DNA from: an uncultured Chloroflexia bacterium
Lineage (GTDB): Bacteria > Chloroflexota > Chloroflexia > QHBQ01 > JADMIH01
NCBI GenBank assembly: GCA_963797095.1
Contig: CAWCNY010000003.1
Coordinates: 64,001-128,000, forward strand
Length of the DNA stretch: 64,000 nucleotides
Direction: 5' to 3'
A program made the translations under genes and the position numbers. Each line of letters starts with the position of its first letter. The first letter of the stretch is position 1. The notes beneath the pieces are model-generated. The model was not told the origin of the DNA. It ran no database searches and worked only from the letters and a program-made list of their open reading frames with translations. Positions 29,523 to 55,353 of the stretch are shown here, piece after piece.

Positions 29523-31063
29523 GAACGAACCCGTTTAGCATCGCAGATGCTCCCCCCTGGCTCTCAGATCTGGAAGGTTCGGAGCAGCCTGCCAAACTAC
29601 CGAGACAACTAAGGCAACTGGGAATGGTCCCGCACATCCTGGGGCGATTACTTGAAGTGGCCGAGGCTATCCCGCGACTGTACGATGCGCTTCCCTGGCT
29701 CAGAGACATGAGTGTGGAGGCACTAATCACGGAGCGCTATTCGAGGGCACTGTTCTCAAACTCCTTGGGCTTCTCAGACCGAGATCAGTTGTCTTCAGAG
29801 CCAGAGCCAGAGCCAGAACCAGAGCTGGAGCAGGAGGCGACCCTGACCACCTTCTTCCGGGAGGTAACTGAGCCGGTAGCTGGGATGATCGAAGCCCTCT
29901 ACGTTTCGCCTTTGCTTCGTGAGAGACATACGGTCTGGGAGATCGTTGGTCGGATGGCGCGATCTGCGCGTGAGAATGCATTACCTGAAGACGTAGTGAC
30001 AGGTGTCTGTGCCAGCGTCCTTCGCGAGCGCGCTGCGGTGCTGAGAAAAGGGATACAACCACGACCAGCAAACTGGAAGGTCACCTGGCGTCCAACATCG
30101 GTGTGCATACGGTGGCCGACACGGTGGCCACGTCGGCCACTTCCGCTCGATCCTCCTGTGAACTCGTTTGTGGTTGTGGTGACGGAGGAAACGACCGGCG
30201 AAGGAGGCAGAGCCCCAAGGGGAGGTAGAGTTGGGGCAGAAGGCAATGGGAGAGAGGGAGAAGTGCGAGAAAGGGTGCTGGCCTTTCGTTGCACACCTGG
30301 TGTACCTGGTACTGGTATCTGTGGTGCCCGTGATACCTGCGGCGTCATTGACATTGAGGCCCTCGAAACTGCCATGGAGCTGGCTCTTTACGACGCGTTG
30401 GCGTTCCCCCTCTCGGCTGAGGGCCGGTTCGTATGGTCTCCCTGGCACATTTCTCCGCCAACGCATCTTTATGTGCAGGCTCCTATGCCTAAAGCAATTC
30501 GACAAGCAGCGAGTGTGTGGCGCATCAAGGCGGAAGAAATCATCCAACCAGGGTCGCAACGAGATTCAGAGCGTAAGAAGGATCGGGAGTGCGAGTGGGA
30601 ATGGGGGTGGGAATGGGAATGGGAGAGGGACCTGACTGGCAGGGTGCTCGATCCTCTTCAGTATCTACGTATCCTGGACCGAGTATGTGAACGAGCATGC
30701 GGCAATGCACCCTTCCTGGCAAAGCAACAGGTAACCCGTAACCTGGGCTGGCACATGCTTCCTGAGCACGATCCTCTTATGCACTGCCCAGGCCTCGGAG
30801 AGTTACTTCCCTCATATCCTGCGGTGGTGGGAGGGGACGGAAGCGTGGAATGGAACGAGTGGCACTACCGTGACTACGACGAGAACGTACTGCGCTACTT
30901 CCCAGGGTCACGCGTCACGATCCGTCCATCTCCACTCGCTGAGGCGGCGGTGTTGGTGTACTGGCGCGGCTCGGTTCTTTGTTACGCGGTGGCCGAGGAA
31001 CTACGTCACGAAGATGGTAGCTACCGCCCTTACTGGTTTCCGTACCCACGCCTCGGCGAGTGA
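29519..31063 (+). CDS. Catalytically inactive TnsB paralogue, element A
   Basis: Collinear with the transposase by eye but lacks the DDE residues (NWKVTWR for VWQIDHK, THLYVQAP for EIWIDNG); keeps a Mu-transposase C-terminal-like domain; ATGA-coupled to the ATPase. Confidence 0.7.
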   Translation: MRTNPFSIADAPPWLSDLEGSEQPAKLPRQLRQLGMVPHILGRLLEVAEAIPRLYDALPWLRDMSVEALITERYSRALFSNSLGFSDRDQLSSEPEPEPEPELEQEATLTTFFREVTEPVAGMIEALYVSPLLRERHTVWEIVGRMARSARENALPEDVVTGVCASVLRERAAVLRKGIQPRPANWKVTWRPTSVCIRWPTRWPRRPLPLDPPVNSFVVVVTEETTGEGGRAPRGGRVGAEGNGREGEVRERVLAFRCTPGVPGTGICGARDTCGVIDIEALETAMELALYDALAFPLSAEGRFVWSPWHISPPTHLYVQAPMPKAIRQAASVWRIKAEEIIQPGSQRDSERKKDRECEWEWGWEWEWERDLTGRVLDPLQYLRILDRVCERACGNAPFLAKQQVTRNLGWHMLPEHDPLMHCPGLGELLPSYPAVVGGDGSVEWNEWHYRDYDENVLRYFPGSRVTIRPSPLAEAAVLVYWRGSVLCYAVAEELRHEDGSYRPYWFPYPRLGE

Positions 31064-31391: not shown

Positions 31392-33212
31392 TCATTCACC
31401 CAACCGAGGGTAGGGGAACCAGTATGAGCGGCATGTGCCGTCCTCGTGGCGTAATTCCTCGGCAACCGCATAACACAGGATCAATCCTCGCCAGTAGACC
31501 ACAATAACAGCCTCATTTAGCGGGGAGCATCTGACCCTGACGTGGGCGTGCTGGAAATAGCGCAACACGTCCGCCTGGTAGTCTCGATAGTGCCAACCAT
31601 GCCCGCCACGCGGCCATTCAATGCTTCCATCATCGCCCACCTCTGCGGGATAAGACGGGAGCAGTTCTTGGAGGCCTATGTAGTTCAGCAGCGGGTCATG
31701 GTCGGGGTGCATGCTCCAAAGCCAACCCTGACGGTGTATGACCCGCTGTTTGGCGAGGAAGGGTGCATAGCCATAGGTCCTCTCCAGTGCGCGGTCCAAA
31801 ATACGCATGTAGTGGAGAGGATCGAGCACTCGGCCGACTAACTCCTTCTCCCACTTCTCCCATTCTTCTTCTCGTTCGCCGACCCAGTCTGTTGCCTCTC
31901 TTTCCGGTGGGCTACCAACTTCTTCAATCTGTTCTACCTGCTCTACCTGCTCTACCTGCATACCCCACACACTGGCTGCCTCCCTGATCGCTCCGGGTAC
32001 CGGCATCTGCACGCGCAAAAGCGTCGGTGGACAGATGGGTCCGTTGTACTCCCCATCTCTGGAGCGTGAGAAGACCAGTGCGTCGTAGAGAGCCAAGGTC
32101 TTCGCAGTTTGGAGGCATTCAGCAGTTTCACGGGGACCAGAACCGAGACCGGCGTCAGTATCGGCATCGGCATCGGCATCGGCATCGGCATCGGTATCGG
32201 TGTCCCAAAGATGAGTAGGATCAGGCAGACAACGGAACGCCAACACCTTGCCGGTTTGTTGGAGCCCAACACCTGCCTTGTGGGTGATTTCTTCCCGCAC
32301 CACAACCAGCAGTGAGTTTCCGGCTGCGTCAGTATCGTCAGTATCGTCAGTATCGTCAGTATCGTCAGTATCGTCAGTATCGTCAGTATCGTCAGTATCG
32401 TCAGTATCGTCAGTGTCACGGTCAGCTTCATGGTCACGATGCATAGGCTGCTGAATTGACTGTTGGAGTGGCTTCTGAACTGGCCATTGCAGTCGGATTG
32501 GTATACTCCGCCAGGTAATCGTCCAGATAGCCGGGTGTGGCCGAGGCCGGCATTCGCTCAGGGTAATGAGACGACTGCGAGTAAGGCTAGCGCAAAGAGC
32601 TATCACCACATCCATTGGCAACGGCTTTACCCCTGCGGCCCCAGCCATGCGGCGCAGGATCTCCCAGACAGTGCGAGTATCCAGCAGCAATGGGGAGGAG
32701 TAAAGGGCCTCGACCATCTCCGCTATGGACTGGGTTACCCTGGCGAAAAAGGCCAGCATAGCAACTGCTGTCTTGGGGGTCTTCGGAACTGCTGGACAGG
32801 ATACTCCCCCTGGCGTCACTTTGGTTCGCAAGTCCTTGGTTCGCAAGTCCAACAGGTCCAACAGGTCCGACGGGTCTGAAGAGCGGGAGGGGTTGAGAGA
32901 GGGCGAGGAGCAGGGGGAGCAGGGGGAGCAGGGAATGTACGGAAAGCGTGCTTCTGCCTTACGCTGCACGAGCAACTCCCACAAACTTACCTCCTTGAGC
33001 CAGGGTAGTACCTCATACAGATCAGGTTCATACTCGGCCACGTCGAGCAATCGACCAAGCAGGCGCGCAAGCTGCTGGACCTCTTGTTCTTGGAGTTGCT
33101 CGGTGCGCTCGATGCCGTCTTCTGAGCGTTGCAGCGGCCATGCAAGCGGCCGAGCAAGTGGCCAAGCAGGAGCACCCGTGACGTTGAACGGGTTCACCCT
33201 CATCGGGTCCAT
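31392..33212 (-). CDS. Catalytically inactive TnsB paralogue, element B
   Basis: Homologous to 29519-31063 (both end AVAEELRHEDG..R.YWFPYPRLGE); start at ATG 33212, TAATG-coupled to the ATPase stop. Confidence 0.7.
   Translation of the reverse strand: MDPMRVNPFNVTGAPAWPLARPLAWPLQRSEDGIERTEQLQEQEVQQLARLLGRLLDVAEYEPDLYEVLPWLKEVSLWELLVQRKAEARFPYIPCSPCSPCSSPSLNPSRSSDPSDLLDLLDLRTKDLRTKVTPGGVSCPAVPKTPKTAVAMLAFFARVTQSIAEMVEALYSSPLLLDTRTVWEILRRMAGAAGVKPLPMDVVIALCASLTRSRLITLSECRPRPHPAIWTITWRSIPIRLQWPVQKPLQQSIQQPMHRDHEADRDTDDTDDTDDTDDTDDTDDTDDTDDTDDTDAAGNSLLVVVREEITHKAGVGLQQTGKVLAFRCLPDPTHLWDTDTDADADADADADTDAGLGSGPRETAECLQTAKTLALYDALVFSRSRDGEYNGPICPPTLLRVQMPVPGAIREAASVWGMQVEQVEQVEQIEEVGSPPEREATDWVGEREEEWEKWEKELVGRVLDPLHYMRILDRALERTYGYAPFLAKQRVIHRQGWLWSMHPDHDPLLNYIGLQELLPSYPAEVGDDGSIEWPRGGHGWHYRDYQADVLRYFQHAHVRVRCSPLNEAVIVVYWRGLILCYAVAEELRHEDGTCRSYWFPYPRLGE
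32328..32408. repeat. Nine perfect 9-bp tandem repeats encoding (DTD)n
   Basis: (GTCAGTATC)x9; a nearby 6-bp (GGCATC)n array at ~32160-32198 encodes DADADA. Confidence 0.95.
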
Positions 33213-34234
33213 TAGGAAATCGCCTCTTGCCCAGGTTGCCCGGCTGTTGCCTTGGGTGTTGTCTTCGATGTCCGAGTTGCCCGGGATCCATGCGGTGGCC
33301 GTTGCTCGGACGCTGCCTCGTAAGGCCCTGTCTCGTGAGGCCCGCTCGTCGAAACCCCGCCTTGTGGTCCTTGCCGCAGCTTGGGCAAGTGCGGGATCAG
33401 TATCAAGTGCAGCGTTTCGGCCAGGCTCTCCTGGGTGATCCGCTCTGCCCCTCGTGCGCACGCTATCTGGCTGGCATATTGCAGCACCACCCTCAGCTTC
33501 CGAAACGACGGACATACCCTCTGCCACAACTGGATGCCCATCTGCCGGTCCTCGGGGTTATCGGCGTCATAATGCCATAGCGGAAGGGTCATGCTAGGTA
33601 GCACAGCGGTCAACACCTCTTCCTGGGTGAGAGGCAAGAACTCCATGTGCAGACCGATGCGGCTCACGAACTTCTCGTGGCGGTTGATCACCCGCAGAAT
33701 TCGGGGAAGCCCCACAATCACGATGGGGCAGCCGGTTCGGTCGAAGACATGGCGTAAGAACTCGAAGCTCTCCACGTTCAGCCAGTCTCCCTCATCAACC
33801 AGCACCAGATCCAGGTCGTTGCGCCTGATGGCTTCCGTGGCTACCTTTTCCATGTCGTAGACGTTGGAGTTGCATCGGTCCCCGCTCAGGGTGCTGACCA
33901 ATGTCCTGGCTAGAGCCTTGGCAGTGGAGCGCGGGCTGACCTTGATCCCCACACAAGAGGGGAAGCCGCTGTATGCACGGGGCTTGAGGTCTTGTAGGTA
34001 AGTCTGAATGGCAATCGTTTTGCCCAATCCTGCATCGCCTGTGACGATACCCATGGTGGCGTAGCCGGTCTGCTCGCGTGATTGCAAGATGAACTGCATG
34101 CAGGCGTGGAAGCGCTTGACGCTGTTGGTAATGATCGGTGCCTGGCCGAACGGCAGGCGGTTCTCAAAATCGAGGTCATCGGCATATTCGGGGATCATCG
34201 TGGTAGTTGGGGACATAGGGTTCATGGGGGTCAT
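33212..34234 (-). CDS. TnsC/TniB-like AAA+ ATPase, element B
   Basis: GDAGLGKT, LVLVDE; close paralogue of 28509-29522. Confidence 0.9.
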   Translation of the reverse strand: MTPMNPMSPTTTMIPEYADDLDFENRLPFGQAPIITNSVKRFHACMQFILQSREQTGYATMGIVTGDAGLGKTIAIQTYLQDLKPRAYSGFPSCVGIKVSPRSTAKALARTLVSTLSGDRCNSNVYDMEKVATEAIRRNDLDLVLVDEGDWLNVESFEFLRHVFDRTGCPIVIVGLPRILRVINRHEKFVSRIGLHMEFLPLTQEEVLTAVLPSMTLPLWHYDADNPEDRQMGIQLWQRVCPSFRKLRVVLQYASQIACARGAERITQESLAETLHLILIPHLPKLRQGPQGGVSTSGPHETGPYEAASEQRPPHGSRATRTSKTTPKATAGQPGQEAIS

Positions 34235-35964
34235 AGGAGTTCTCCTTTCGGATTGATCTGGTCAGTTTGTTCGGCCTGCTGGGTTTGCTGGGCCACGAGG
34301 AAATCGAATAGGTCTGGCTGGTGAGTTGCCAGGGCTGTTTGGGATGGTGGGCCTGTTTGAAGGTTTAGAGGCAGGTCTAGCGCATGTAGCGCATGAGTTG
34401 GTTTCTTCTTGCCTTGTTGGTTGGAGGGGGCAGCAGTCTGGAGCGGAGCCCGGAGCATCTTGTCTACCTCATGTGCGTCCTCGTGTGCAGCCTTGATGCG
34501 GCTACGAACATGTGCCCGCTGCCGGCGTTGTGCTTCGACAATTACCTGGCGCTCAAGCGTCTGCCCTTGTGGGGAACTGAGTGCGAAGGCCGTGCAGCGC
34601 CACTTTCCCTCGAAGAACACCTCAATCTCGTCTGGGGCCGTGTAATGGGGAGCAGCGCGCACCAACACGTCCTCGCCGACCAGGACCGACAACTCCAGGT
34701 GCCAGTAGCGCTCTGAGGCGTACTTGATCCCATCCTTGTGCACCCGCCTGGTCGCCGGCTCTTTCAGCAGCATATCCAGCAAGCGCAGGAGTTGATCATC
34801 TACAGGAATTGGAGTGGCGTTGCGCTCCCAAAACTCAAGAGGTGTCTGACTGGTCTCGCTGTGGGCCTCATGCACTTCGTGGTGGTAGCGATCGATGAAT
34901 GCCCGAAAGTGTTCATCGAGTTGGGAGATGGTAAGCTCGGCTTTGGCCTTCGGGTTGCGCTCTGCGACGTTTGAGCCCACATAGCCGGGGAGGGTGGACC
35001 AAAGCCGCGTGTCCAGCGTCCTGTGCAGCCGCTCGACGATACCCCGTATCTCCGGGTCGTGTGGAGGTCCGGGGACCAGCTTGATACCCAACCCTTCCGC
35101 CAGTTGATAGACGTGGCGAGCGACCAGGTCTTTGCCGTTGTCGATCCATATCTCGTCAGGCACGCCTCCAAAAGCCTTGTGTTCATTAGTGAGCATTGCC
35201 TCTCGGATAGCGGCGGCCACCGTGAAGCGGTTAGGCTCGTCGTAGCTGAATAACCCGGCCATCACCAGGCGGGACGCGCTGTCGACTACCATCGTCAGGA
35301 ATGGCCGCACTTCTCCTGAAGTTCGCCGGTGAGAAACTGCTCTTAGGTCGCGCACCATCACGTGGAGGGGATCCTTGTGGTCGATCTGCCAGACGACACG
35401 ATGAGGATCATGCCGTATGGGGTAGGTCAGGCGGTATCGATTGCGGAATTCCCCCTCTCGTCCATCAGCGAGCAGTCGCACCGGCTCCGGTATCTGAGCG
35501 CAGATGGAGCGGACCTGGTAGAGAGTAGGTGGCGCTTCCCCCGCTGCAGATGCATACTGGCAGGCTAGCTCATACACGTAGCGAACCGGGGCATCGCGAT
35601 GGGTCAGCCGCAGGCTCTCAACGACCTGGGTCATGTGAGGGCTGAGGCCATGAGGTTTGCCTCTGTCGGTACGAGCACGAGGAGCAAGGCCTGCTAAGCC
35701 GTAGCGCTGGTAGCGGGTGTGGTAGTATCGCAATATGCGAACAGACACTCCTACCTCTCGTGCCCGCTGGTCAAGGGTGGCATTGCTAACCCGTTCTCGT
35801 TCAGCCAGATCCCCGAGCAGAGTGCGCCGACGGAAAAGCTCCTGGAGGTCCTGCTCGGAGAGAGCGCCAATATCCGGGTTGGGAGCGTCCCTTGGGGCCA
35901 CCCGGTCGGACGGTCGTTGTGGTGCTGACTTTGGTTCTAGTCCTGGTTCCCGTTGTTGTTTCAT
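34231..35964 (-). CDS. Mu/TnsB-like DDE transposase, element B
   Basis: WQID / IDNG / VER triad; close paralogue of 26788-28521. Confidence 0.92.
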   Translation of the reverse strand: MKQQREPGLEPKSAPQRPSDRVAPRDAPNPDIGALSEQDLQELFRRRTLLGDLAERERVSNATLDQRAREVGVSVRILRYYHTRYQRYGLAGLAPRARTDRGKPHGLSPHMTQVVESLRLTHRDAPVRYVYELACQYASAAGEAPPTLYQVRSICAQIPEPVRLLADGREGEFRNRYRLTYPIRHDPHRVVWQIDHKDPLHVMVRDLRAVSHRRTSGEVRPFLTMVVDSASRLVMAGLFSYDEPNRFTVAAAIREAMLTNEHKAFGGVPDEIWIDNGKDLVARHVYQLAEGLGIKLVPGPPHDPEIRGIVERLHRTLDTRLWSTLPGYVGSNVAERNPKAKAELTISQLDEHFRAFIDRYHHEVHEAHSETSQTPLEFWERNATPIPVDDQLLRLLDMLLKEPATRRVHKDGIKYASERYWHLELSVLVGEDVLVRAAPHYTAPDEIEVFFEGKWRCTAFALSSPQGQTLERQVIVEAQRRQRAHVRSRIKAAHEDAHEVDKMLRAPLQTAAPSNQQGKKKPTHALHALDLPLNLQTGPPSQTALATHQPDLFDFLVAQQTQQAEQTDQINPKGELL

Positions 35965-36180
35965 CGTTCCAACCTCCTTTCAACCTCTTCCTTGGTGAAG
36001 AGGAAATCGATATTTCTTGCTGTCGCTCCCTGTTGTATACTCCTTTAGAGAATCCGTCCATGCCTAACAGTCCCCACTCAGCAGGGTGCTAGGCTCTACT
36101 AAGGAGTTGGAATAACAGCGGGAAATATGGACAGGCTGGTTGATGAGACAAGGAAGAGGGGAGGGGGAAGAGTGGAACGA

Positions 36181-37272
36181 ATGGATCGAGTAACCCCAAT
36201 CAAGAAGAATCGATCACAGCGGCCTGTGCCTCCTCAAGAGCGGTTGGCTGAACAACTTGAGGACTGGCGACGGTCACTGCAGGAACAGGATCGTTCGCCT
36301 GGCACAGTCGAGAAGTATGTCGAGGCGGTGCAGCGCTTTCTGACCTGGTTTGAGCACGAGGAAGGCGGCGGTGCGCCTTTACAAGTGGAGGCGCTCACAC
36401 CGATTGCCCTAATCGGCTATCGAAACTACCTGCAGCATGAACAACAGAAGTCGGTTAGCACTATCAACCTCCGTATCAGTGCCTTGCGCGCCTGGTGCGG
36501 TTGGCTGGTTGATCAGGGCTACCTGACTTCTGACCCTTCTGCCCGGGTAAAGCTGGTGAGGACGGCGAGCATGAACAAAGACGGCAGCGGGGCCAGTTCC
36601 AAACGAGAAGGGCTCACCGGTCCTCAAGTCAATGCTCTTCTTCGGCAGGCTCAAGCCTCCAGCGAGGCAGAGCGCAACTACGCCATTTTGCAAGTATTGC
36701 TGCAAACAGGCATTCGCTTGAGCGAGTGCAGCAGCTTGCGACTTGGCGATATCACACTTGGGGAGCGTAGCGGCATGCTGCTGGTGAGGGCGGGTAAAGG
36801 TAACAAAACTCGTTCGGTGCCTCTCAATGCTTCAGCCCGTGAGGCTCTGACCGTCTACGTCGCACCCCGCTTAGGTCCAGAAGAAGGAGAAGATGGAGCG
36901 GAAAAGAAGGCGTCGTTGAAGGTGCTTTTCAAGACCGTGGCTGCGAACTGGCCCAGGGCCGGAACGCCTCAGGCTCTTGAGCCATTGTGGCTTAGCCGCA
37001 AAGGAGGAGCGCTCACAAGTTCAGCTATCGGTCAGATGATGGCTGAACTTGTCAAGGCAGCAGGGAAGTTGGTCCCGCAAGAGACGAGCGTTCACTCTTT
37101 GCGCCATACGTTTGCTCGAAGCTACCTATCTTTATATCCCGGAGATGTGGTGGGCTTGGCAACGCTGCTGGGGCATAGTTCACTCGATACCACCCGCCTT
37201 TACAGCCAGCCTGGTGTGTCTCAGTTGGCTGCTCGTGTGGAAAGGCTCTCCCTCAACGCCTATTCGGGGTAA
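36181..37272 (+). CDS. Tyrosine recombinase, element B
   Basis: Paralogue of 25428-26543 with the same R-K-H-R-H-Y motifs; start chosen by alignment with copy A (the ORF extends to 36127). Confidence 0.92.
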   Translation: MDRVTPIKKNRSQRPVPPQERLAEQLEDWRRSLQEQDRSPGTVEKYVEAVQRFLTWFEHEEGGGAPLQVEALTPIALIGYRNYLQHEQQKSVSTINLRISALRAWCGWLVDQGYLTSDPSARVKLVRTASMNKDGSGASSKREGLTGPQVNALLRQAQASSEAERNYAILQVLLQTGIRLSECSSLRLGDITLGERSGMLLVRAGKGNKTRSVPLNASAREALTVYVAPRLGPEEGEDGAEKKASLKVLFKTVAANWPRAGTPQALEPLWLSRKGGALTSSAIGQMMAELVKAAGKLVPQETSVHSLRHTFARSYLSLYPGDVVGLATLLGHSSLDTTRLYSQPGVSQLAARVERLSLNAYSG

Positions 37273-40381: not shown

Positions 40382-42829
40382 TTACTCACCGTTTCTATTC
40401 GCGCCTGAAATGCCGAGCGCGAACCCAAGAGCCACGTCCATGCCCATTGGGCGACCGCTTTCCTGGGCGTCCTGCCATACCTGGGCGTCAAGGTCTGCTC
40501 GGACGGCCGCTTCGATCTCTTCCCTATCACGCTGATCGTTGGGGTCGAAAAGCGTGCCGCCGAAAGCCGCCAGGGCGTTGCCTGCTCCTATCAGCCGGGC
40601 TGCTTTTCGGGCGTTGCCCTCCGCCCGCTCGATCCCGGCCCAGACGAAGAGACCAGTAGCGAAAGGATAGGGCGACGCCAACTCGCGGAAAAGATGCAGA
40701 GCCTCGCTCAGCAGCTCTTTCGCGCGCTCATACTCCCTGCAATGGTAGAGTACAAAGGCCAGGCTCATCGCCTCCACCGCCACACCTCGTTTATTGCCTA
40801 CCTCGCGGTTCAAAGCCAAACATTTCTCAAAGAAATCGATAGCGCGGGGGTAGTCGCGTTCCGACCTGGCCGCCTCGCCCATGCTGCTCAGCGCTACCGT
40901 CATGCCCTCGTTGTCTCCTATTGCTCGAGAACGTTCGAGACTCTCATCGAGTAAGGCCCATGCTAGTTCTCTATCACCCGGCAGATTCATTTCGTGTATC
41001 AGATGCGCCACTACACGGAGCGCTCTGACGATCCCCTGCTCGTTGTTCAGCGCCCTGTAGACCCGCAAGCACTCCTCGGCCATTACCCTGCAAAGGGGGT
41101 ACTCCCTCGTTCGCCATAGCACCGAGAGCGCGGCGTGCAAAGCCCTGGCTCGGACAAGAGTAGGCTTCAGCGTGTCCCCCACCAGTGACCGCTCCGGGAT
41201 CCGACCGAGCCACCATCTACCCTCGCGCGGGTAGTGGTCGATCCAGAAGGGCCTGAGTGCGCCACCAAACCGGAGGGCGATATCCTCTTCGCCTCGCGCC
41301 AGCGACCACGCTAGCGCGGCCACGGTGTTGCTGTGCTCGCTCTCAAGACGCCCCACCCAGTCAGTTTGCTCCTGCCCCCTCAGGTGGGGTTCGGCGCGCT
41401 CGACCAGGCTCAGGAAGTAGGCCGCGTGCTTTCGCCTTATGTCTTCCGCCTCGTCACTCTCACCCAATCCTTCCAGCGCATATTCTCCTATCAACTCCAG
41501 CATCGTGAAACGGCGCTCCTGGCCCCTGGTCTCGTCACTGACGATGGTGCGCTTCAACAAACTCTTCCCCAGCAGCGATTCAATGCCATCGGTAGCATCT
41601 GGTCCGCACACTGCCTCGGCTGCCTCCAGCGTAAAGCCTCCCACAAACACGCTCAACTGGGATAGGAGCCGCCGCTCGTGAAGTTCCAGAAGTTCGTAGC
41701 TCCAGTCGATGGCCGCGCGCATCGTCTGTTGGCGCGCAGGAAGGTGCGCGAAATGCCTGTGGCGCGCGGGGTTGGCCAGCAAGCTCAACTGCTTATCCAG
41801 GCGAGCAGCCATATCGGCCACCGAAAAGAGCGATACACGGGCCGCTGCCAGCTCGATAGCCAGAGGCAGACCGTCCAGACGCGTGCAGACCGTGGTTATG
41901 TCAGAGGCATTTCGCTCGTTCAATGAGAAGGATGGGTCGACCGCACGCGCTCGTTCCAAGAACAGGGCAATGGCAGGGTAGCTCGGCAGGGTCGCCACAG
42001 CGGGCATGCGTACAGGATTGGGCAACTCGAGAGGAGCGAGCGGTAATTGCTGCTCTCCCATAACATGAAGGGCTTCGCGGCTGGTTACAAGGATTTTCAG
42101 ATGCGCAGACGCGTTGAGTATATCGACCACCAGCGGCGCGGCGTCCAACACCTGCTCGAAGTTGTCGAGCACCAGCAGTACCGTCTTACCGGCCAGGAAA
42201 TGCTTGAGCGAGTCTTGTACAGTCTGGCCACCGCTCTCTGCCAGTCCAATAGTGGCGGCGATTGCCGAGGCCACCGCAGCGGGATCGCTTATGGGGGCTA
42301 ACTCAGAAAAATAGACGCCGTCACTGAAATGCCCTACCAGATTTGCCGCTACTTGCAGGGCCAGGCTAGTCTTACCTATGCCGGGTGCCCCGGTCATAGT
42401 CAGCAGATGAACGTCATCCCTTAGCAGATAATCGCAAGCAGCAGCTACGTCCTTCTCGCGCCCAAACAGCGGTCTGAGGAGCGAAGGCAAATTGGAGGAA
42501 GGCAACCGAGGCATATGCTCGGAGGTCGATGGGAGCGATGTGCCGGTTTGCGACCCATGGCCATTGGCCGATTCGTCCGGCACGGGACCTAGCTCAGAAG
42601 ATTCACCGCGTGCAAAGCTGATAAATTCCTCGTGCTCTTCCGGAGGTATTTTGAGACACTCAGCAAGCCTTTGGGCTACCTGCTTGGAAGGCCGGCGCTG
42701 GCCCACCTCGATCTTATGGATCGTGATTGTGGAGCACCCAACGCGCTCAGCAAGGTCCTCTTGGGTCAGATCAAGGGCACGGCGACGCTGCTTGAGCCAT
42801 ACGTTGAAGGAGATATCCTCTATCCCCAT
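40382..42829 (-). CDS. XRE-HTH / STAND (NB-ARC-like) ATPase / TPR transcriptional regulator
   Basis: HTH LTQEDLAERVGCSTITIHKIE, Walker A GAPGIGKT, LLVLDNFE, GLPLAIELAA, C-terminal TPRs; the ORF can extend to 42883. Confidence 0.9.
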   Translation of the reverse strand: MGIEDISFNVWLKQRRRALDLTQEDLAERVGCSTITIHKIEVGQRRPSKQVAQRLAECLKIPPEEHEEFISFARGESSELGPVPDESANGHGSQTGTSLPSTSEHMPRLPSSNLPSLLRPLFGREKDVAAACDYLLRDDVHLLTMTGAPGIGKTSLALQVAANLVGHFSDGVYFSELAPISDPAAVASAIAATIGLAESGGQTVQDSLKHFLAGKTVLLVLDNFEQVLDAAPLVVDILNASAHLKILVTSREALHVMGEQQLPLAPLELPNPVRMPAVATLPSYPAIALFLERARAVDPSFSLNERNASDITTVCTRLDGLPLAIELAAARVSLFSVADMAARLDKQLSLLANPARHRHFAHLPARQQTMRAAIDWSYELLELHERRLLSQLSVFVGGFTLEAAEAVCGPDATDGIESLLGKSLLKRTIVSDETRGQERRFTMLELIGEYALEGLGESDEAEDIRRKHAAYFLSLVERAEPHLRGQEQTDWVGRLESEHSNTVAALAWSLARGEEDIALRFGGALRPFWIDHYPREGRWWLGRIPERSLVGDTLKPTLVRARALHAALSVLWRTREYPLCRVMAEECLRVYRALNNEQGIVRALRVVAHLIHEMNLPGDRELAWALLDESLERSRAIGDNEGMTVALSSMGEAARSERDYPRAIDFFEKCLALNREVGNKRGVAVEAMSLAFVLYHCREYERAKELLSEALHLFRELASPYPFATGLFVWAGIERAEGNARKAARLIGAGNALAAFGGTLFDPNDQRDREEIEAAVRADLDAQVWQDAQESGRPMGMDVALGFALGISGANRNGE

Positions 42830-42906
42830 CTTCCTTCTACCTCTCACATCGCGCATTGCAGAATGCAGCTTACCAATCGGCAAGCAGTAGGACGTTCAGG
42901 CCCACC

Positions 42907-42976
42907 TGTATGAGCGTTTGTACCAGTGATGTATGGGCAGCAGTATGAACAATTATATCCGATTGCGTGCAACAAT
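42907..42976 (+). promoter_or_regulatory. Operator 1: four direct repeats plus a -10-like hexamer upstream of the peptide gene
   Basis: TGTATGAGC (42907), TGTACCAGT (42919), TGTATGGGC (42930), AGTATGAAC (42942); AACAAT at 42971. Confidence 0.7.
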
Positions 42977-43055
42977 ATGCGCGAGGTAAGCAGGCTTCAA
43001 CGGTATTGAACTATCCGCTGAAGCCCCACAGGGTTCCAAAGGGAGGTGAACAACA

Positions 43056-43133
43056 ATGAAGGCCATTATCAAATACGCCCGCTACGCTCTCGCATCGCTG
43101 GCGACAATTGGCTTCAAACTCTCTTCCAACTGA
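43056..43133 (+). CDS. 25-aa candidate precursor/signal peptide MKAIIKYARYALASLATIGFKLSSN
   Basis: Below the ORF-track cutoff; near-perfect RBS AAAGGGAGGTGA just upstream; basic n-region, hydrophobic core, polar tail; hairpin at 43204-43239 downstream. Confidence 0.75.
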   Translation: MKAIIKYARYALASLATIGFKLSSN

Positions 43134-43365
43134 GCGTCAGTAAGTGCCACGGAGTAATCCATCCTGCACCTTGGCATGGACATGGATCGTACACGATCGA
43201 AGTGGGCACTGCCATGTGATATGGGGTGCCCCTTTCTCTATGCAACCATCGACCTTGTTCCCATCTGCAAATGCGCTGCCTGCAGCTATTCAACGTACAT
43301 TGCCAGGACTTCCGTCCCATGATGATCTGTGCGAGTACACTCGTCACTCAATCCAGGAGCACTCA

Positions 43366-44919
43366 GTGATTGAGACTGCTTTCGCGCAACTTCGTTTCGC
43401 AGCCTCACTGCTCTTTGGTATTCGCTTCAGCCAGCGCGCGCTCGACAAAATGATAGACGCCATGCTCGCCACTCGTCAGGAGTTCGGCGCTCTAGGGGAG
43501 GAAGCGCGTGAACTCACTACCGGCCCCACACTGGACGAGGAGACCCGCCGCGACATGCAGCTTCGTCGCTTCCGTAAGCAGGCGACCCGCGCAGCTAACC
43601 AGACGCCTTACTACGGGGAGTTATTCAAGCAGCTAGAGCTGGAGCCGGCAAGATTGAGTTGGAAAGAGGTGCTGCGCATACCTCTCACTCCCAAAGAGCA
43701 CATGCGCGACCGCCCAGGCGACTTCGTCTGTCGGGATGCTCGCCCCGTCTTCCGGACTACCACCACCGGCACGACAGGCTGGCCCACCAGTGTCTCCTTC
43801 TCTGCCTATGAGATGGGCACCTATATAGCCCTGGGAGCAATCGGTCTGCTCAATGAGGGCACTGTCACGGGCGAGGATATTGCCATCATCAGCACCAGCT
43901 CGCGGGCAACGCTGGGCAACCTCTGCGCGGCCGGGGCATTGGCTCGGATAGGAGCACTAGTGTTCAATGGCGGCCTGGTAGATCCCGCCTTAACATTGGC
44001 GCTCCTATCCGAACGACACCGAATCCCTGGGAAGCGAGAGCGAGTGAGCTTGATGGTCACTTATCCCTCGTACCTCGGCGACGTAGTGGAGTGCGGGCAG
44101 CGGTTGGGATACTCGCCGTCCGACTTCGGGGTGCGACGTATCAATGTGAGCGGGGAGATAGTCACCGCGGGGCTGCTGGCCCGCGCGCGCAAGCTCTTTG
44201 GGGATGGCATAGAGTTCGAGAGCGGCTACGGGATAACGGAACACTGGCCTCTAACCGGCATGCTCTGCGAGCAAGACCACCTGCACTTCGAGCCTTCTCA
44301 TGGCCTGATTGAGGTGTACAACCACGAAACTCAGGCGCTTGCCCAGCCGGGTGAGTATGGCACAATCGTGTCTACCCCTTTCTGGCCTCTCAGAGAAACC
44401 ACCCTTGTCATTCGCTATGACACTCAGGACTTAGTGCGCGTGTTCGATGGCCCATTTACATGCCATCTAGAGAACTTGCCCGCCGTATCGAACGTGCGCG
44501 GCAAGCTGAAGCTAGCGGTGAAGCACGAAAGCGGTTGGACATTTCCGCGTGACATCATGGAAGCGTTGGAGGGAGAAGATCTGGCGGACGAAGTGCCGTT
44601 GCCTGCTCGCTTCAGCTTCTGGGCGGTGCCTGGTGGGGTTGCCATAGACACTGTAGTCCGGCGGGGAGCGGACCCGAAGGCAACCAGCCGCCAGGTGACG
44701 AACGCCTTGCAAGAGCGGGGCGTACCCGTTCGGGAGTTGCATCTGATTACCGACAAGAGCCGGCTTCGCAATCCGCTCCCTCTGCGAGGCGACCTGAGGG
44801 AGACTTCGTTTAGCACGTCTAGTATGCCAAGTAAGACCTCCCAAGCGTTGGAAACCCTGCGTCGGGACTCTGAATCAGTAAACCACGTTCCGAGCGATCC
44901 GCTAGCAGTGGGCAAGTAA
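43366..44919 (+). CDS. Phenylacetate-CoA-ligase (PaaK)-like adenylate-forming enzyme
   Basis: P-loop TTTGTTGWP, YGITE, RYDTQD motifs; AGGAG RBS before GTG 43366. Confidence 0.85.
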   Translation: MIETAFAQLRFAASLLFGIRFSQRALDKMIDAMLATRQEFGALGEEARELTTGPTLDEETRRDMQLRRFRKQATRAANQTPYYGELFKQLELEPARLSWKEVLRIPLTPKEHMRDRPGDFVCRDARPVFRTTTTGTTGWPTSVSFSAYEMGTYIALGAIGLLNEGTVTGEDIAIISTSSRATLGNLCAAGALARIGALVFNGGLVDPALTLALLSERHRIPGKRERVSLMVTYPSYLGDVVECGQRLGYSPSDFGVRRINVSGEIVTAGLLARARKLFGDGIEFESGYGITEHWPLTGMLCEQDHLHFEPSHGLIEVYNHETQALAQPGEYGTIVSTPFWPLRETTLVIRYDTQDLVRVFDGPFTCHLENLPAVSNVRGKLKLAVKHESGWTFPRDIMEALEGEDLADEVPLPARFSFWAVPGGVAIDTVVRRGADPKATSRQVTNALQERGVPVRELHLITDKSRLRNPLPLRGDLRETSFSTSSMPSKTSQALETLRRDSESVNHVPSDPLAVGK

Positions 44920-44920
44920 G

Positions 44921-45781
44921 ATGGAGAGCCTAACCTCTTCACGGCTGGTAGTGTTAGCCTTCGCCTTCGCTGCTATCGCTCTGAGCTGGCTTTACTTTCG
45001 CCGCTTCCAGGTCACCCGACCGCCCATCGGCGTGTTCAACCTGACCGACATAGGCATCGTGGTAGGGGGCTTAATCCTGGTGCCGTACTTATATCTGCTC
45101 TTACCTCTCTGGCTGATTGCCGGGCTGCTGACTCTGGGTGCTTTGAGTGTGATCTACTTTCTTTGGGAGCCGGTGCTGCGAGGCCGTCTGTTGGTCTGGC
45201 TGGCAACTCTCGCTCTCTTATGCGCCGATATCTGGGCTGCGCTGCAATTCGGTACAAGCAGCAACGGCTTCTTCATTGTGAATAACATTGTCCTGCTTGC
45301 TATGGTAGTGGGCTTGTCCAACCTGTGGGCGCAAAGTGGTATGCGAGCTAGAGACGTGATGATCCTGGGCAGCTTTCTCATGTTTTACGACCTGACTGCC
45401 ACCTGGCTGCTTCCCGTCATGAGCGACATGATGCTGCGGCTGGCGGGTTTGCCGCTCTCACCCATGTTCGGGTGGGGCATTGGACGCAACAGCGACAGTG
45501 CGAGCGGGAGCGGCCCATTGGCAAGTGTGGGCCTGGGGGACCTGTTGCTGGCCTCAGTGTTCCCCCTGGTTATGTACAAGGCTTTTGGGCGCGCCGGGAG
45601 CTGGGTGGCGATGGTGATAGCACTGGGAGCTATCTCAGCTATCATGCTGGCGCATATAGCAGACACATTCCCCTTGATGATTGTGCTCGCCCCTCTCATG
45701 ATAGCTCAATACGTCTACTGGTCGCGTATGAAGGGCCGTGAGCGCACCACCAGGCAGTATCTGCAGGCTGAGCCGCTGTAG
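44921..45781 (+). CDS. Polytopic membrane GxGD aspartic protease (presenilin/signal-peptide-peptidase-like)
   Basis: About 9 TM segments; FLMFYD and VGLGDLL aspartate motifs; FPLM in the position of the PAL motif; starts 2 bp after the ligase stop. Confidence 0.72.
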   Translation: MESLTSSRLVVLAFAFAAIALSWLYFRRFQVTRPPIGVFNLTDIGIVVGGLILVPYLYLLLPLWLIAGLLTLGALSVIYFLWEPVLRGRLLVWLATLALLCADIWAALQFGTSSNGFFIVNNIVLLAMVVGLSNLWAQSGMRARDVMILGSFLMFYDLTATWLLPVMSDMMLRLAGLPLSPMFGWGIGRNSDSASGSGPLASVGLGDLLLASVFPLVMYKAFGRAGSWVAMVIALGAISAIMLAHIADTFPLMIVLAPLMIAQYVYWSRMKGRERTTRQYLQAEPL

Positions 45782-50978: not shown

Positions 50979-51830
50979 ATGAGTAGGAGTAGATATGTCA
51001 TGAGCGCGGTCACGGGTCAGGTTATGGGTGCGGCCCAACAGCCAGCGTATGAATGGAAAGACTTGCCATGGAAGCAAATCGAGAGGCATGTCTTCAAGCT
51101 CCAAAAGAGAATCTATCGGGCTTCCGTCCGTGGCGATGTTAGGGCAGTCCACCGGCTACAGAGGTTATTGATGAAATCCTGGTCGGCAAAAGCACTGGCT
51201 GTTCGTAGGGTTACTCAAGACAACCGAGGCAAGAACACAGCCGGAGTGGACGGGGTGAAATCGCTCAACCCAAAACAACGACTACGACTTGTCACGATAC
51301 TGACTTTACCCAAGAGGGCACAACCCACAAGAAGAGTTTGGATACCCAAATCCGCCTCCAAAGAGAACGAAAAACGCCCTCTTGGAATACCAACCATACA
51401 CAATCGAGCAGAACAAGCACTCGCTAAGCTAGCCTTGGAAGGTGAGTGGGAAGCTCGATTTGAACCAAACAGCTACGGTTTTCGACCAGGACGAAGTGCC
51501 CATGATGCGATTGAAGCAATCTTCTTGGGTATTCGCCTCAAGCCAAGATATGTGCTTGATGCCGATATCGCGAAATGTTTTGATCGAATCAACCACACTG
51601 CACTATTGAACAAACTCCAAACCTACCCTCGAATGCGAAGAGCCATCAAAGCATGGCTCAAAGCAGGAGTGATAGAAGGGGAGGAATTGTTCCCGACCGA
51701 GGAAGGAACTCCTCAGGGTGGGGTTGCCTCGCCGCTACTCGCCAATATCGCCTTGCACGGCCTGGAAACATCTATCTGCAAAGCCTTTCCATCGAACCAA
51801 AGACCAATAGTATTAAGGTATGCCGATGAT
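50979..51830 (+). CDS. ltrA: Outer intron RT/maturase, 5' part (RVT_N through YADD)
   Basis: WKQIERHVFKLQKRIY, TAGVDG, RPLGIP, SYGFRPGR, GTPQGG, ending at RYADD. Confidence 0.9.
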
Positions 51831-54378
51831 GTGCGCCATATCACCAGGTGCTAGATACCTTTCGCAGAAAGGAGGGGTTCGGAAGAATAAACCCCTGGGT
51901 CAATGGCTTACCCGATGGCGAAAGCCAAAAGGAACAATAGCATGCCATTAAAGCAGGAGAGAAATGCCACGTCAGAAGATGCTTATGACCTTGTCCTGCA
52001 AGACCCGCGTAATACGGTGAAAGCCAAACTGCTTGAACTTCAGTCTCTAGCGATGCAAGCGTACATCCCCCGATTACAGCATCTAAGGCGGGGCCATCAC
52101 GATAGGGCGACAAAATCGTCGTCGCTCGAACCTTCCGCGTGATGGGCGGTGAGAAACGATCTCACTCAAAGGGGCAGACGAAGCACCTAAGTTACGCTCG
52201 ATACGTCTAGCATTTAGGGAATATGGGATTGCCCAACGGGCCGAGAGGCCCAGGGTAACGGAGCCTCCGTAGTACTCAGAGGACGGGAAAGCCGTCCACA
52301 TTGACCAGGGTACGTCCACGTGAAACCACGTGAGGATTTCATGTTGAACGTAACCAGGCGGGGAAGGGAGGCAGGTGCTTTGAAACCCAGCAAGAGAGGT
52401 ACTCGAGATGAGAAACGCCGAAACTGTACTGGGGATCATCCAGGATCGCGGCAGGAGAGGACTGCTGCTAGAAGATGTCTATCGACAACTGTTCAACCCG
52501 CAACTGTACCTGCTCGCCTATGGCAAGATTTACCGAAACAAAGGAGCGACGACACCGGGAACGACACCGGAAACTGTGGATGGAATGTCCATGATGAAAA
52601 TCGATGCCATCATCGAAGCCTTACGCTTCGAGAGATACAGATGAACACCGGTGAGGCGTATCTACATCGAGAAAAAGCACTCCAAAGGGAAGCCCCAGAG
52701 GAAGTCTCAAGGAAAAGCAATCTCGAAAAAGAAGCGCCCCCTCGGAATACCCGCATGGTCAGACAAACTGTTGGCGGAGGTAATACGCCTCATCCTTGAA
52801 GCATACTACGAACCGCAATTCAGCCCATCTTCCCACGGTTTTCGCCCTGACCGAGGTTGCCACACAGCGCTACGGGAAATCTACCATAAATGGGTGGGCA
52901 CAAAGTGGTTCGTGGAGGGCGACATTTCCGACTGTTTTGGCTCGCTGGATCACACCATCATGATGTCAATACTCAGGGAAAAGCTCCACGATAACCGCTT
53001 TCTGCGCTTGATTGAAGGTTTGCTCAAGGCCGGATATTTGGAAGGGTGGAGATACAACGCCACGCTCAGTGGTAGTGCACAAGGCTCGGTACTTAGCCCC
53101 ATCCTCGCCAATATCTACCTTGCCAAACTGGATAAGTATGTCGAGACGACGCTCTTGTCAACCTACAACCAAGGGAACCGACGCAAGATCAACCCGGAGT
53201 ATCTCCGGCTACGCGCCAGTGTCACGAGGCTAAAACGGATGGGGAAAAAAGAGCAAGCACACAAGTTGCGTCGTCAGATGCAGCAGCTACCCTCCCTTGA
53301 CCCCAACGACCCAGCCTACAGACGGTTGCGCTACATACGGTATGCAGACGATGTGCTTGTGGGTTTCAGCGGCCCACGTAAGGAAGCTGAAGAAATCAAG
53401 CAACTCCTCAAAGAGTTTTTGGGTGATGAACTCAAGCTGACCCTCTCAGAGGAGAAAACGTTGATCACCCATGCACGGAGCAAAGCTGCACGCTTTCTGG
53501 GTTATGAGGTCGTAGTGCTCAACAACGACCACAAACTGGACCGGCGTGGACATCGGAGCATCAACGGCCAGATCGGGCTGAAAGTACCCTCGGACGTAGT
53601 ACGTGCGAAATCTACTGGCTACCTGCACAACGGCAAACCGATACACCGAACGGAACTTATCCACGACAGCGTGTACAGCATCATGGCACAGTACCAGGCG
53701 GAGTACCGGGGCATTGTGGAGTACTATCGGCTGGCTTACAACCTGCACCAACTCAACCGGCTGAGGTGGGTGATGGAACGGTCGCTAACTCAAACACTGG
53801 CACACAAGCTACGCATCAGCGTGAGCAAAATCTACCACCGTTACCAAACCAACATTCAGACAGAAGCGGGTCCACGTGTTGGCCTGCAAGTGGCGGTTGA
53901 GCGCGGAGAGGGAAAGAAGCCACTGATAGCGAAGTGGGGCGGTATTACTCTCGCACGGAATATGAAAGCAGTCCTCAACGACCAACCTACACGTGTTTGG
54001 GGATCACACTCACACACAGAGCTAGAAAAACGGTTCCTGGCAGACACTTGTGAGCTATGCGGCTCACGTGAAGATGTCGAGGTACACCATATTCGAGCAC
54101 TAAAAGACCTCAAACGAAAGGGACGTGCTGATAGACCTGAATGGGTGAAAGTGATGGCGGCACGCCAACGCAAGACGCTGGTGGTCTGCCGAGCATGTCA
54201 CGATGAAATCCACAGAGGGAAACTAACACAGCATACACTACCACGAGTACAACACGAAGCCGCTAATGGAAATGGAGAAGCACTGGAGAGCCGGGTACTC
54301 CGAAAGGCGTAAGCCCGGTTTGGGGAGGGGCGGACAGAAAAGTATCGGTAACGACAACTCGCTGGCCGCCTACTCTAC
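51831..54378 (+). mobile_element. Inner group II intron (mitochondrial-like class, IIA)
   Basis: Starts GTGCG, ends CCTACTCTAC; DV GAGCCGGGTACTCCGAAAGGCGTAAGCCCGGTT; its removal restores YADD-FVVM in frame. Confidence 0.93.
52408..54312 (+). pseudogene. ltrA: Inner intron RT/maturase/HNH protein with an in-frame TGA at 52642
   Basis: ORFs 52408-52644 and 52651-54312 are in the same frame: ERYR*TPVRR, where W is expected; YADD and CELCG..EVHH..C..CH are present. Confidence 0.88.
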
Positions 54379-55353
54379 TTCGTGGTCATGCACGAGAAAT
54401 TGGAGGTTATTGAGCGATGTCAACAAATCGTGACAGAATGGCTCAAGGGCATGGGGTTGGAACTGAAACCCAGTAAAACCCGTATCACGCACACACTACA
54501 CACCTACCAGGGAAACACCGGGTTCGACTTTCTCGGTTTCTCGGTCCGACAATTTCCAGTGGGCAAGACCCACACAGGAAAGAACGGACAGGGCCGAAAG
54601 CTAGGGTTCAAGACCATCATCAGACCAAGCGAAGAAGCTCAGAAACGACACGCCAAAGCACTTGGTGATATCATCCGGAAGATGCGAGGGATCAGTCAGA
54701 TCGACCTGATAACTCTGCTAAATCCAAAGATACGAGGGTGGTGTAATTATCACTCCACCGTCATATCCGGGAAGGTATTCAGCAAGATGAGTGACGTGCT
54801 GTACCATCAGCTAAGACGCTGGGCACAACGCCGTCACCCCAAGAAATCCAAAAGATGGATTGCCAACTGCTACTGGCACCCAAATGAGGGCAAATGGGAT
54901 TTTGCATGCAAAGAAGGAAGGCTAATCCAACATAGGGAGATACCTATCAGAAGGCATGTGAAAGTACAGGGTGTCAAAAGCCCTTATGACGGAGATTGGG
55001 CCTACTGGGGCCGAAGGCTACAGCGCTACCCTGGATTGCACCCGATGGTAGCACAGCTACTAAAGAGGCAGGAAGGGAAATGCGCCTGGTGTGGATTGCA
55101 ATTGAGAAGTGAAGAAATCATGGAGCGTGACCATGACGTCCCAATCGTACTGGGAGGTGGACATGGTATCACAAACCGTAGACTACTTCACGGGTATTGT
55201 CACGACGCAAAGACAGCTCAGGATGGTTCTTCAACCTCTAGAGTTGTCAGAAGTTCCAAAGTTAGGGACCGTAGGACTGAGGAGCCGGATGAGGCGAACA
55301 GTCTCATGTCCGGTTTTGTAGGCGGGCGGGAGGCAGTGATGCCTCTCGCCTAG
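54379..55353 (+). CDS. ltrA: Outer intron RT/maturase, 3' part (RT6-7, domain X, HNH)
   Basis: FVVMHE...GLELKPSKT...FDFLGF...LNPKIRGWCNY...CAWCG...DH...HGYCH. Confidence 0.9.
   Translation, partial: FVVMHEKLEVIERCQQIVTEWLKGMGLELKPSKTRITHTLHTYQGNTGFDFLGFSVRQFPVGKTHTGKNGQGRKLGFKTIIRPSEEAQKRHAKALGDIIRKMRGISQIDLITLLNPKIRGWCNYHSTVISGKVFSKMSDVLYHQLRRWAQRRHPKKSKRWIANCYWHPNEGKWDFACKEGRLIQHREIPIRRHVKVQGVKSPYDGDWAYWGRRLQRYPGLHPMVAQLLKRQEGKCAWCGLQLRSEEIMERDHDVPIVLGGGHGITNRRLLHGYCHDAKTAQDGSSTSRVVRSSKVRDRRTEEPDEANSLMSGFVGGREAVMPLA

Follow-up and report, generated by a model that had tools for sequence, protein, structure and literature searches.

A candidate three-part peptide-maturation cassette in Chloroflexota and Actinomycetota: short precursor genes, a PaaK-type ligase and a putative presenilin/SPP-type protease

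Results

Structure of the locus

We analysed a stretch of 64,000 nucleotides from an uncultured Chloroflexia bacterium (assembly GCA_963797095.1, contig CAWCNY010000003.1; hereafter, the window) and considered in it the region 40382-45781, for which a preliminary description, made from the sequence alone, had proposed a peptide-signal system comprising a 25-residue precursor, a PaaK-like ligase, a GxGD intramembrane protease and a divergent STAND-TPR regulator. All parts of the proposed system were found where they had been placed. In our view it is an even call whether the first three of them form a RiPP-like (RiPP, a peptide made by ribosomes and then modified post-translationally) or pheromone-like maturation cassette of a kind not yet described, in which one or several short precursors are handled by a PaaK-type ligase and a protease of the presenilin/signal peptide peptidase (SPP) type. 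The features of the region are as follows.

40382..42829, minus strand: regulator with an XRE helix-turn-helix (HTH) domain, a STAND (NB-ARC) NTPase and TPR repeats, encoded divergently to the peptide gene; its partnership with the cassette is facultative
42830..43055, no strand assigned: intergenic region; promoters are presumed here, and GGGAGGTG (43041-43048) is the Shine-Dalgarno site, from reading of the sequence
43056..43133, plus strand: precursor peptide gene, 25 residues; the only match of the peptide model genome-wide, aligning with 34 homologues
43199..43236, plus strand: GC-rich hairpin in the gap between the peptide and ligase genes, from the fold energy and equivalents at related loci
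43366..44919, plus strand: PaaK-family ANL (adenylate-forming) ligase, 517 residues from the GTG at 43366, from a profile comparison with PDB and an Atlas model of a homologue
44921..45781, plus strand: putative GxGD intramembrane aspartyl protease with a predicted presenilin/SPP fold, 286 residues, about nine transmembrane segments, from invariant motifs, hydropathy and a homologue's model

Precursor peptide genes

The open reading frame (ORF) at 43056..43133 (+) comprises 25 codons (product MKAIIKYARYALASLATIGFKLSSN), and the strong ribosome-binding site reported for it was borne out, as the Shine-Dalgarno sequence GGGAGGTG at 43041-43048 lies 7 nt ahead of the ATG. The locus set consisted of the window and 47 loci fetched from public genomes with a ligase profile (n = 48), and further loci were taken from relatives. 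Peptide genes were sought by a scan with a short motif and then with a hidden Markov model (HMM) constructed from the motif-derived seeds.

By the HMM, we observed 66 homologous ORFs encoding 22-30 residues in 39 of the 48 loci, the window included. The nine loci without an HMM match (L030, L039, L048, L033, L060, L065, L061, L062 and L036) include two Rubrobacter loci (L030, L039), each with two diverged tandem copies found by reading the frames, and three loci (L033, L060, L065) whose flank is short or missing on the side expected to hold the peptide gene. In 13 additional Streptomyces loci, representing two deeper clades of the ligase-protease pair, a peptide ORF is situated directly upstream of the ligase gene in every case (6 identified by the HMM and 7 by reading, with one of the read ORFs running past the stretch examined). 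If the preliminary description were correct, homologous loci should carry the short ORF, and this tendency is indeed observed in the loci searched by the HMM (39/48), in the two read by eye and in Streptomyces (13/13). The short ORF is thus a true, conserved gene tied to the PaaK-like ligase and the GxGD membrane protein, with homologues in two phyla.

Nearly all copies begin with an ATG placed 6-10 nt downstream of GGAGG or AAGGAG, and the genes occur in one to seven tandem copies per locus, with differing tails. At one locus (L066, from position 3866), an array of seven copies ends with a peptide ORF that runs on, without a change of frame, into the ligase N-terminus; a fusion, a frameshift or an error of assembly could explain this, and the ligase match at this locus is fragmentary.

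In four Acidimicrobiia genomes the 81-nt peptide gene differs at 5-12 positions, nearly all of them third codon positions. The numbers of synonymous and non-synonymous codon changes in these comparisons are 6/0, 9/1, 5/0, 8/1, 6/0 and 8/1, and the same ratio of 8/1 is seen in a Streptomyces pair. When the peptide HMM was run against 173,344 six-frame fragments covering the whole 6.0-Mb genome of the window, only 43056..43133 was retrieved (E = 9e-14; the next best match, 0.26). None of the Pfam and NCBIfam models gave a credible match to any of the 35 peptides scanned, and in the one public annotated record examined the peptide ORF is unannotated. Judged by the codon changes, the precursor is shown to be a translated gene under purifying selection.

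Peptide anatomy and C-terminal classes

In the alignment of 35 peptides, the N-terminus is basic, R-Y and then L are near-invariant, and the F that comes next, mostly with G or A ahead of it, is invariant; the tail behind it varies. Exactly five residues follow the invariant F in 45 of the 66 peptides. The window peptide has the same organization, with a conserved basic/aromatic N-terminal helix, the invariant Phe and a variable five-residue tail ending in Asn. Lys near the N-terminus is common, not invariant. As D or E is conserved at no column of the alignment, the C-terminus is the only conserved carboxylate of the family. The last residues are distributed as follows.

Non-actinobacterial peptides (n = 51): N in 31, Q in 20
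Actinobacterial peptides (n = 15): S in 9, T in 4, N in 1, G in 1
Rubrobacter peptides: N
One Streptomyces clade: V or A
Another Streptomyces clade: C-x-x-S

The conserved C-terminal Asn expected in the preliminary description is not supported by these data, since Asn shares its place with Gln outside the actinobacteria, S/T endings account for 13 of the 15 actinobacterial peptides, and the Streptomyces clades have V/A or C-x-x-S. Hence the Asn chemistry of the microcin C type cannot be the common mechanism. Universal side-chain cyclisation of a C-terminal N, Q, S or T, which we also considered, is weakened by the clade with V/A endings.

Two other interpretations of the peptide were rejected. 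If the motif were a sorting signal at the C-terminus of larger proteins, the peptide HMM should have had further matches in the genome, and there was no second one. A system of the prepilin-peptidase and Flp-pilin type would bring corresponding neighbours, and none were present in the ORF clustering; the listed Atlas neighbours of the protease are of the SPP/A22 type. DUF4244, which we take to be a pilin-like family, matches weakly in 6 of the 35 peptides (best E = 0.014).

Linkage and co-diversification

The preliminary description suggested looking for a GxGD protease downstream of ligase homologues, and the two genes proved to be adjacent and co-oriented in 41 of the 47 fetched loci; the exceptions are four loci at a contig edge and two outgroup loci. 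They are also adjacent in all six relatives carrying the protease and in all 13 further Streptomyces loci. Clustering of ORFs of at least 70 residues from the 48 loci yielded the ligase in 48, the protease in 42 and the STAND regulator in 17 loci. Other clusters (15-44 loci) were judged from example coordinates to be ORFs in overlapping frames, and no remaining cluster covered more than five loci. In this clustering we observed no conserved exporter, immunity gene, further tailoring enzyme, gene for small-acid synthesis or paa gene. The peptide, the ligase and the protease are the only conserved parts of the cassette, and the three are shown to be co-inherited across Chloroflexota and Actinomycetota.

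In Chloroflexota the peptide genes are usually placed ahead of the ligase gene; most Actinomycetota have one copy behind the protease gene. On the tree of 53 ligases (FastTree; rooted at the midpoint for drawing only), both the classes of peptide endings and the gene orders map onto ligase clades, and three cassette types co-exist within the genus Streptomyces. Thus, the peptide and the enzymes diversify together, independently of the host taxonomy. The actinobacterial clade with a downstream peptide and S/T endings is nested inside clades of the Chloroflexota type (FastTree with the midpoint root only), which hints at transfer between phyla; one member of this clade is located on a Streptomyces linear plasmid.

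We also considered an anti-phage defence system. PADLOC gave no match for the ligase or the protease, and for the regulator only generic HTH and TPR matches; the idea was dropped.

The ligase

The open frame of the ligase extends upstream to 43144 and ends at 44919. The GTG at 43366 fits the homologues and a database gene model (P0124, 517 residues). The frame given in the preliminary description was right, but its start should be moved to 43366 from 43144 or 43240. Taken alone, the ligase has no Pfam match. The family profile retrieved PaaK from the PDB sequences (4r1l, E = 1e-29), as well as the PaaK-like ligases of natural-product pathways 6siw and 6wuq with E of about 1e-14, and the P-loop, YGxTE and RYxTxD motifs align with those of PaaK. 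The ESM Atlas model of a ligase homologue has the full two-domain PaaK fold and a family-specific N-terminal extension of about 45 residues. These observations agree with the earlier identification of a PaaK-like adenylate-forming enzyme.

The public annotation names the ligase 'phenylacetate-CoA ligase'. The score against the equivalog model of that enzyme, TIGR02155, is 44.9 bits (cut-off 646); that of the best NCBIfam model, the DVU_1553 family, is 86 bits (cut-off 300), and overall the NCBIfam scores lie between 45 and 86 bits against cut-offs of 300-700. Thus, the ligase is a divergent ANL enzyme of the PaaK type. All its solved relatives act on small acids.

One database protein, P0388, could be considered a fusion of the ligase and the protease; it was not accepted as such, the alignment being patchy and frameshift-like. 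The genome of the window also contains a second, distant PaaK-like gene with 27% identity (L002, G000:C6:739732-740655), situated about 8 kb from a STAND regulator paralogue (C6:748511-750835).

The membrane protein

The gene of the membrane protein (44921..45781) begins one base after the ligase stop codon and is translationally coupled to the ligase. Its product has about nine hydrophobic segments, and the YD and GLGD motifs noted earlier are present as Y156-D157 in the sixth segment and G204-L-G206-D207 in the seventh; YD and GxGD are invariant in 38 sequences. P258-L259 in the ninth segment is also invariant, in the form (G/A)-P-L instead of P-A-L. The ESM Atlas model of a 54%-identical homologue (P0085) has TM-scores of 0.72-0.81 to clusters of archaeal SPP (PF06550) and eukaryotic Peptidase_A22B (PF04258). 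The presenilin/SPP-like nature proposed for this protein is thus upheld by its motifs, its hydropathy and the homologue's model, and we consider it a putative GxGD intramembrane aspartyl protease of the presenilin/SPP type.

There was no Pfam or NCBIfam match for the membrane protein, and a search of the window's genome with PF06550 gave no match either. The family is of modest size (568 representatives in a search of 1.84 billion proteins at E <= 0.001) and sparse, being present in 8 of the 401 sampled genomes of the window's phylum and in 14 of the 301 sampled genomes of Streptomyces species. Protease relatives of greater length (357-388 residues; P0300, P0301, P0304, P0308 and P0310) have a DUF5678 domain at the C-terminus (best E = 3.5e-06); ten longer relatives scanned had no A22 match.

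The hairpin and the regulator

The gap between the peptide and ligase genes is 232 nt long and contains the GC-rich hairpin of the preliminary description, whose arms we mapped to 43199-43209 and 43226-43236. The 121-nt stretch around it has a fold energy of -43.5 kcal/mol (z = -2.25), and 2 of 200 shuffles were equally good. The hairpin was not flagged by a simple terminator scan because it has no T-run. Many related loci have a comparably strong hairpin after the last peptide gene, followed in some of them (L021, L058) by a T-run. It is probably an attenuator or a 3' stabiliser that gives an excess of the precursor transcript.

In the regulator, Pfam models detected HTH_3 (1.2e-13), NB-ARC (6.4e-08) and TPR_2 (4.3e-07). 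Homologues of it are encoded within the fetched flanks of 17 of the 48 loci, in varying orientation. The HTH domain is N-terminal and of the XRE type in the window and in L027, L031, L048, L035 and L040, and C-terminal and of the LuxR type in L049, L050, L052 and L053; the divergent arrangement is seen in the window and in L027, L031 and L048. Other loci have an unrelated LuxR regulator. An ORF upstream in L036 is SARP-like by eye and has no match in the Pfam scan. In the regulator of L031 (387-3461, minus strand), an adenylate/guanylate cyclase domain separates the XRE HTH from NB-ARC.

In the genome of the window (G000), matches to the regulator number 38 at E <= 1e-20, corresponding to a very large expansion of about 36 paralogues. 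With this number, chance adjacency within the fetched flanks would be about 6%, by our own estimate that applies the paralogue density of one genome to all loci. The cassette-adjacent regulators do not form one clade among the paralogues (quick IQ-TREE tree with 26 of the 38 G000 matches), and the idea of a dedicated orthologous regulator was dropped for this reason. The preliminary description was thus right about the XRE-STAND-TPR architecture and the divergent orientation relative to the peptide gene; with adjacency in only 17 of the 48 loci, the regulator is a looser partner than had been proposed. The pattern fits a cluster-situated regulator recruited repeatedly.

Neighbouring genes and other features of the window

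The neighbours of the cassette encode a class-V aminotransferase, an FG-GAP/SLH surface protein, a tyrosine recombinase and transposition proteins of the Mu/TniB type; the GC content of the region is unremarkable. The preliminary description reported no paa catabolic genes nearby, and we likewise saw none among ORFs of at least 100 residues within 30,000-56,000, seven of which were scanned with Pfam. A mobile-element block lies at 33212-37272, a few kb upstream of the cassette, and includes a TniB-like AAA protein, a C-terminal domain of a Mu-type transposase and a tyrosine recombinase. ORFs at 50979-55353 resemble, by eye, pieces of the reverse transcriptase/maturase of a group II intron, apparently nested or interrupted. 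Two large paralogous ORFs (29519-31063, plus strand, and 31392-33527, minus strand) share their C-terminal parts and have low-complexity runs of D-T-D and E-W repeats.

The octamer TGTATGRG occurs on the plus strand at 42907 and 42930, upstream of the peptide gene, and at 45819 and 45831, downstream of the protease gene. The window contains 11 copies against 2.8 expected, and none of 100 shuffles reached this number. As a conserved operator it was dropped: it flanks the window cassette, but the related loci lack it. A sigma-70 scan of 42830..43055 found no promoter-like site on the plus strand.

Discussion

Proposed mechanism and alternatives

If the three genes form a maturation cassette, the following sequence of events may be suggested. 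The strongly translated precursor would be made in excess, with the hairpin limiting read-through into the enzyme genes, and its conserved basic/aromatic/hydrophobic helix would serve as a leader, docking the peptide on the membrane and on the enzymes. The ligase would activate the C-terminal carboxylate with ATP and couple it to a nucleophile inside or outside the peptide: a Cys of the tail, present in many actinobacterial tails, giving a ring; the new N-terminus after cleavage, giving a head-to-tail product; or an external nucleophile. The protease would cut in or beside the conserved helix near the invariant Phe, leaving a product of about 5-9 residues. The C-terminus is suggested as the site of action by the clade-specific last residue, the fixed five-residue spacing and the co-diversification with the ligase. 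The locus has the usual outline of a RiPP cluster, as short precursor genes lie beside processing enzymes and the precursor has a conserved leader-like and a variable core-like part. As for the role of the product, we lean slightly towards a signal, possibly read by the STAND-TPR regulator, rather than an antimicrobial.

Several observations weigh against this maturation cassette. The case for the ligase acting on the peptide is indirect, coming from the conservation and clade pattern of the peptides. The last residue is kept by clade and is not universal (N/Q, S/T or V/A, plus single cases of G and D), and no single side-chain chemistry fits the N/Q, S/T and V/A endings alike. The window peptide is weakly hydrophobic (mean Kyte-Doolittle value 0.51; best 11-residue window 1.55), and it may not span the membrane in the manner of classic presenilin/SPP substrates. 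The evidence for the protease fold comes from Atlas models of a homologue: none of the 38 members of the membrane-protein family matches PF01080, PF04258 or PF06550 at E up to 10, and the family profile has no match among PDB sequences. There are also incomplete loci. L061 and L062 are outgroup relatives of the ligase (about 39% identity) without the protease; L048 has a weak peptide candidate at best; L036 has no peptide, and the ligase frame of the same genome contains an in-frame stop; L033 has none either, but only about 570 bases of upstream sequence are present.

The maturation cassette could operate in different ways, and other explanations should be weighed beside it. The boldest version is a new class of ribosomal peptides, in which ANL activation of the C-terminus leads to a ring (thiolactone, lactone, imide or head-to-tail lactam) or to coupling, the presenilin/SPP homologue serves both as the leader peptidase and as the release device, so that no exporter is needed, and the tails are strain-specific signals read by STAND-TPR proteins; we put it forward tentatively, as a possibility on the unlikely side. 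Alternatively, the peptide could be an unmodified short hydrophobic pheromone, similar to that of the streptococcal SHP/Rgg (short hydrophobic peptide) system and matured by the intramembrane protease alone, with the ligase activating a small acid and perhaps acylating the peptide N-terminus or another molecule. The architecture parallels SHP in the very short precursor with a basic N-terminus and an active C-terminal part, the regulator is divergent in the window, L027, L031 and L048, and the solved ligase relatives all use small acids. In this case, however, one would not expect the ligase to be linked to the peptide genes as tightly as the protease is, nor its clades to track the class of the last peptide residue; moreover, no small-acid synthesis gene is conserved nearby in the 48-locus clustering, and the Lys near the N-terminus is not invariant. 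We regard such a pheromone as unlikely.

Small hydrophobic peptides often act as subunits of membrane complexes. The peptides considered here could be subunits of this kind, or small adaptors or regulators at the membrane, in a complex of ligase and protease that really acts on something else, such as a lipid, a component of the envelope or some other membrane protein, and both the conservation of the helix rather than of the tail and the lack of a conserved exporter agree with this. On the other hand, up to seven tandem copies with hypervariable tails are unlike stoichiometric subunits, and the hairpin is placed as if to yield more peptide than enzyme transcript. We regard a subunit role as unlikely, too. 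Nor is the peptide a sorting tag, as its motif is present on no larger protein of the window's genome. Finally, if the short ORF were a chance frame or a non-coding element beside an ordinary phenylacetate-CoA ligase, which the public label of the ligase and the missing annotation of the ORF in the record examined might suggest, one would expect neither protein-level conservation across two phyla with nearly only synonymous change between close relatives, nor a Shine-Dalgarno sequence at nearly every copy, nor a single genome-wide HMM match; besides, no paa operon was seen among the ORFs of at least 100 residues within 30,000-56,000, and the ligase remains at 45-86 bits where 300-700 are required. 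This explanation has next to no probability and is already refuted as far as sequence analysis goes.

Implications

If the proposed maturation cassette is real, it joins two enzyme families, neither of them connected with ribosomal peptides before within the literature searched, into one scheme of peptide maturation, and it supplies genetically assigned candidate substrates for a prokaryotic protease of the presenilin/SPP type, hence a simple model for GxGD intramembrane proteolysis. Were the reading as a new peptide class true, native substrates would be known for the first time for a prokaryotic protease of the presenilin family. Even an SHP-like pheromone with a dedicated protease would carry such peptide signalling beyond Bacillota. 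The genes for 22-30 residues constitute a family without a Pfam or NCBIfam model. Soil Chloroflexota carry the cassette, and so do Streptomyces that can be cultured (14 of the 301 species genomes sampled); its occurrence in the latter means that the proposal can be tested. Carriers amenable to culture include Streptomyces sp. NBC_00212 (NZ_CP108115.1, L056), Streptomyces sp. NBC_01324 (on plasmid NZ_CP108387.1, L067) and Nakamurella silvestris DSM 102309 (L063).

Comparison with known systems

No system matching the cassette was found in Pfam, NCBIfam or PADLOC, and no description of it in full-text searches of open PMC and bioRxiv.

In microcin C (MccA/MccB) and in lasso peptides, with their B protease and ATP-dependent C cyclase, a ribosomal peptide has a carboxylate activated at the expense of ATP, and this is combined with leader proteolysis. 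Some precursors of the cassette resemble MccA in ending with Asn. The activating enzyme is, however, an ANL ligase, whereas it is E1/ThiF-like in microcin C and asparagine-synthetase-like in lasso peptides. Thus, in place of the E1/ThiF-like MccB and the invariant C-terminal Asn of microcin C, the cassette has an ANL enzyme and endings in N, Q, S, T, V, A and G.

The ligase resembles PaaK and the PaaK-like ligases (6siw, 6wuq, AjiA1) in belonging to the same ANL subfamily, in its nucleotide-binding motifs and, by the homologue model, in the two-domain fold. It differs from PaaK in scoring below the equivalog cut-offs, in its N-terminal extension of about 45 residues, in the absence of a paa context and in its constant partners, the peptide gene and the membrane protease.

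Homologues of presenilin and SPP are described from eukaryotes and archaea, and the physiological substrates of the archaeal MCMJR1 were unknown in 2010 (PMC2947513). Nine hydrophobic segments are common to the putative protease of the cassette and to the archaeal presenilin homologue PSH/MCMJR1 and eukaryotic SPP (MEROPS A22), as are the YD of the sixth segment and the GxGD of the seventh; the P-x-L motif of the ninth has as its counterpart in the cassette the form (G/A)-P-L. Unlike the A22 proteins, it has no Pfam or PDB match at the sequence level, is encoded by bacteria and is genetically coupled to candidate substrates.

In the TMcins (PMC13712780, PMC13252029), precursor processing takes place at or within the membrane, and the leader is cleaved off by an intramembrane protease from the same cluster; the cassette may be similar in both respects. 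The TMcin protease TmcP is a zinc metalloprotease of the S2P clan (DUF3267), the leader has 45 residues, the product keeps the transmembrane helix and disulfides, and there is no ANL ligase. The entire precursor of the cassette, in contrast, has only 22-30 residues, and the cassette departs from the TMcins also in protease class (GxGD aspartyl), regulator type and host phyla.

The SHP/Rgg precursors are very short, with a basic N-terminus, a hydrophobic stretch and active C-terminal residues; the intramembrane protease Eep takes part in their maturation, and the gene is often divergent from that of the regulator (PMC3679016). The SHP/Rgg systems and the enterococcal sex pheromones (RRNPP; PMC3150281, PMC7564271) share with the cassette a short basic-hydrophobic precursor, a membrane protease (putative in the cassette) and, frequently, a divergent regulator in which an HTH domain is joined to a sensor of helical repeats. 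Eep belongs to the housekeeping site-2 metalloproteases, and its gene lies apart from that of the peptide; in the cassette, a putative GxGD aspartyl protease of its own and an ANL ligase are encoded together with the peptide. RRNPP regulators are adjacent HTH proteins with TPR-like repeats and no NTPase; in the cassette, an NB-ARC/STAND NTPase is present instead, in a protein that is not of the Rgg type and occurs at about a third of the loci (17/48). The hosts also differ, being Chloroflexota and Actinomycetota for the cassette versus Bacillota for SHP/Rgg. In logic, the SHP/Rgg and enterococcal pheromone systems are the closest to the cassette, and the TMcins are close to it as well.

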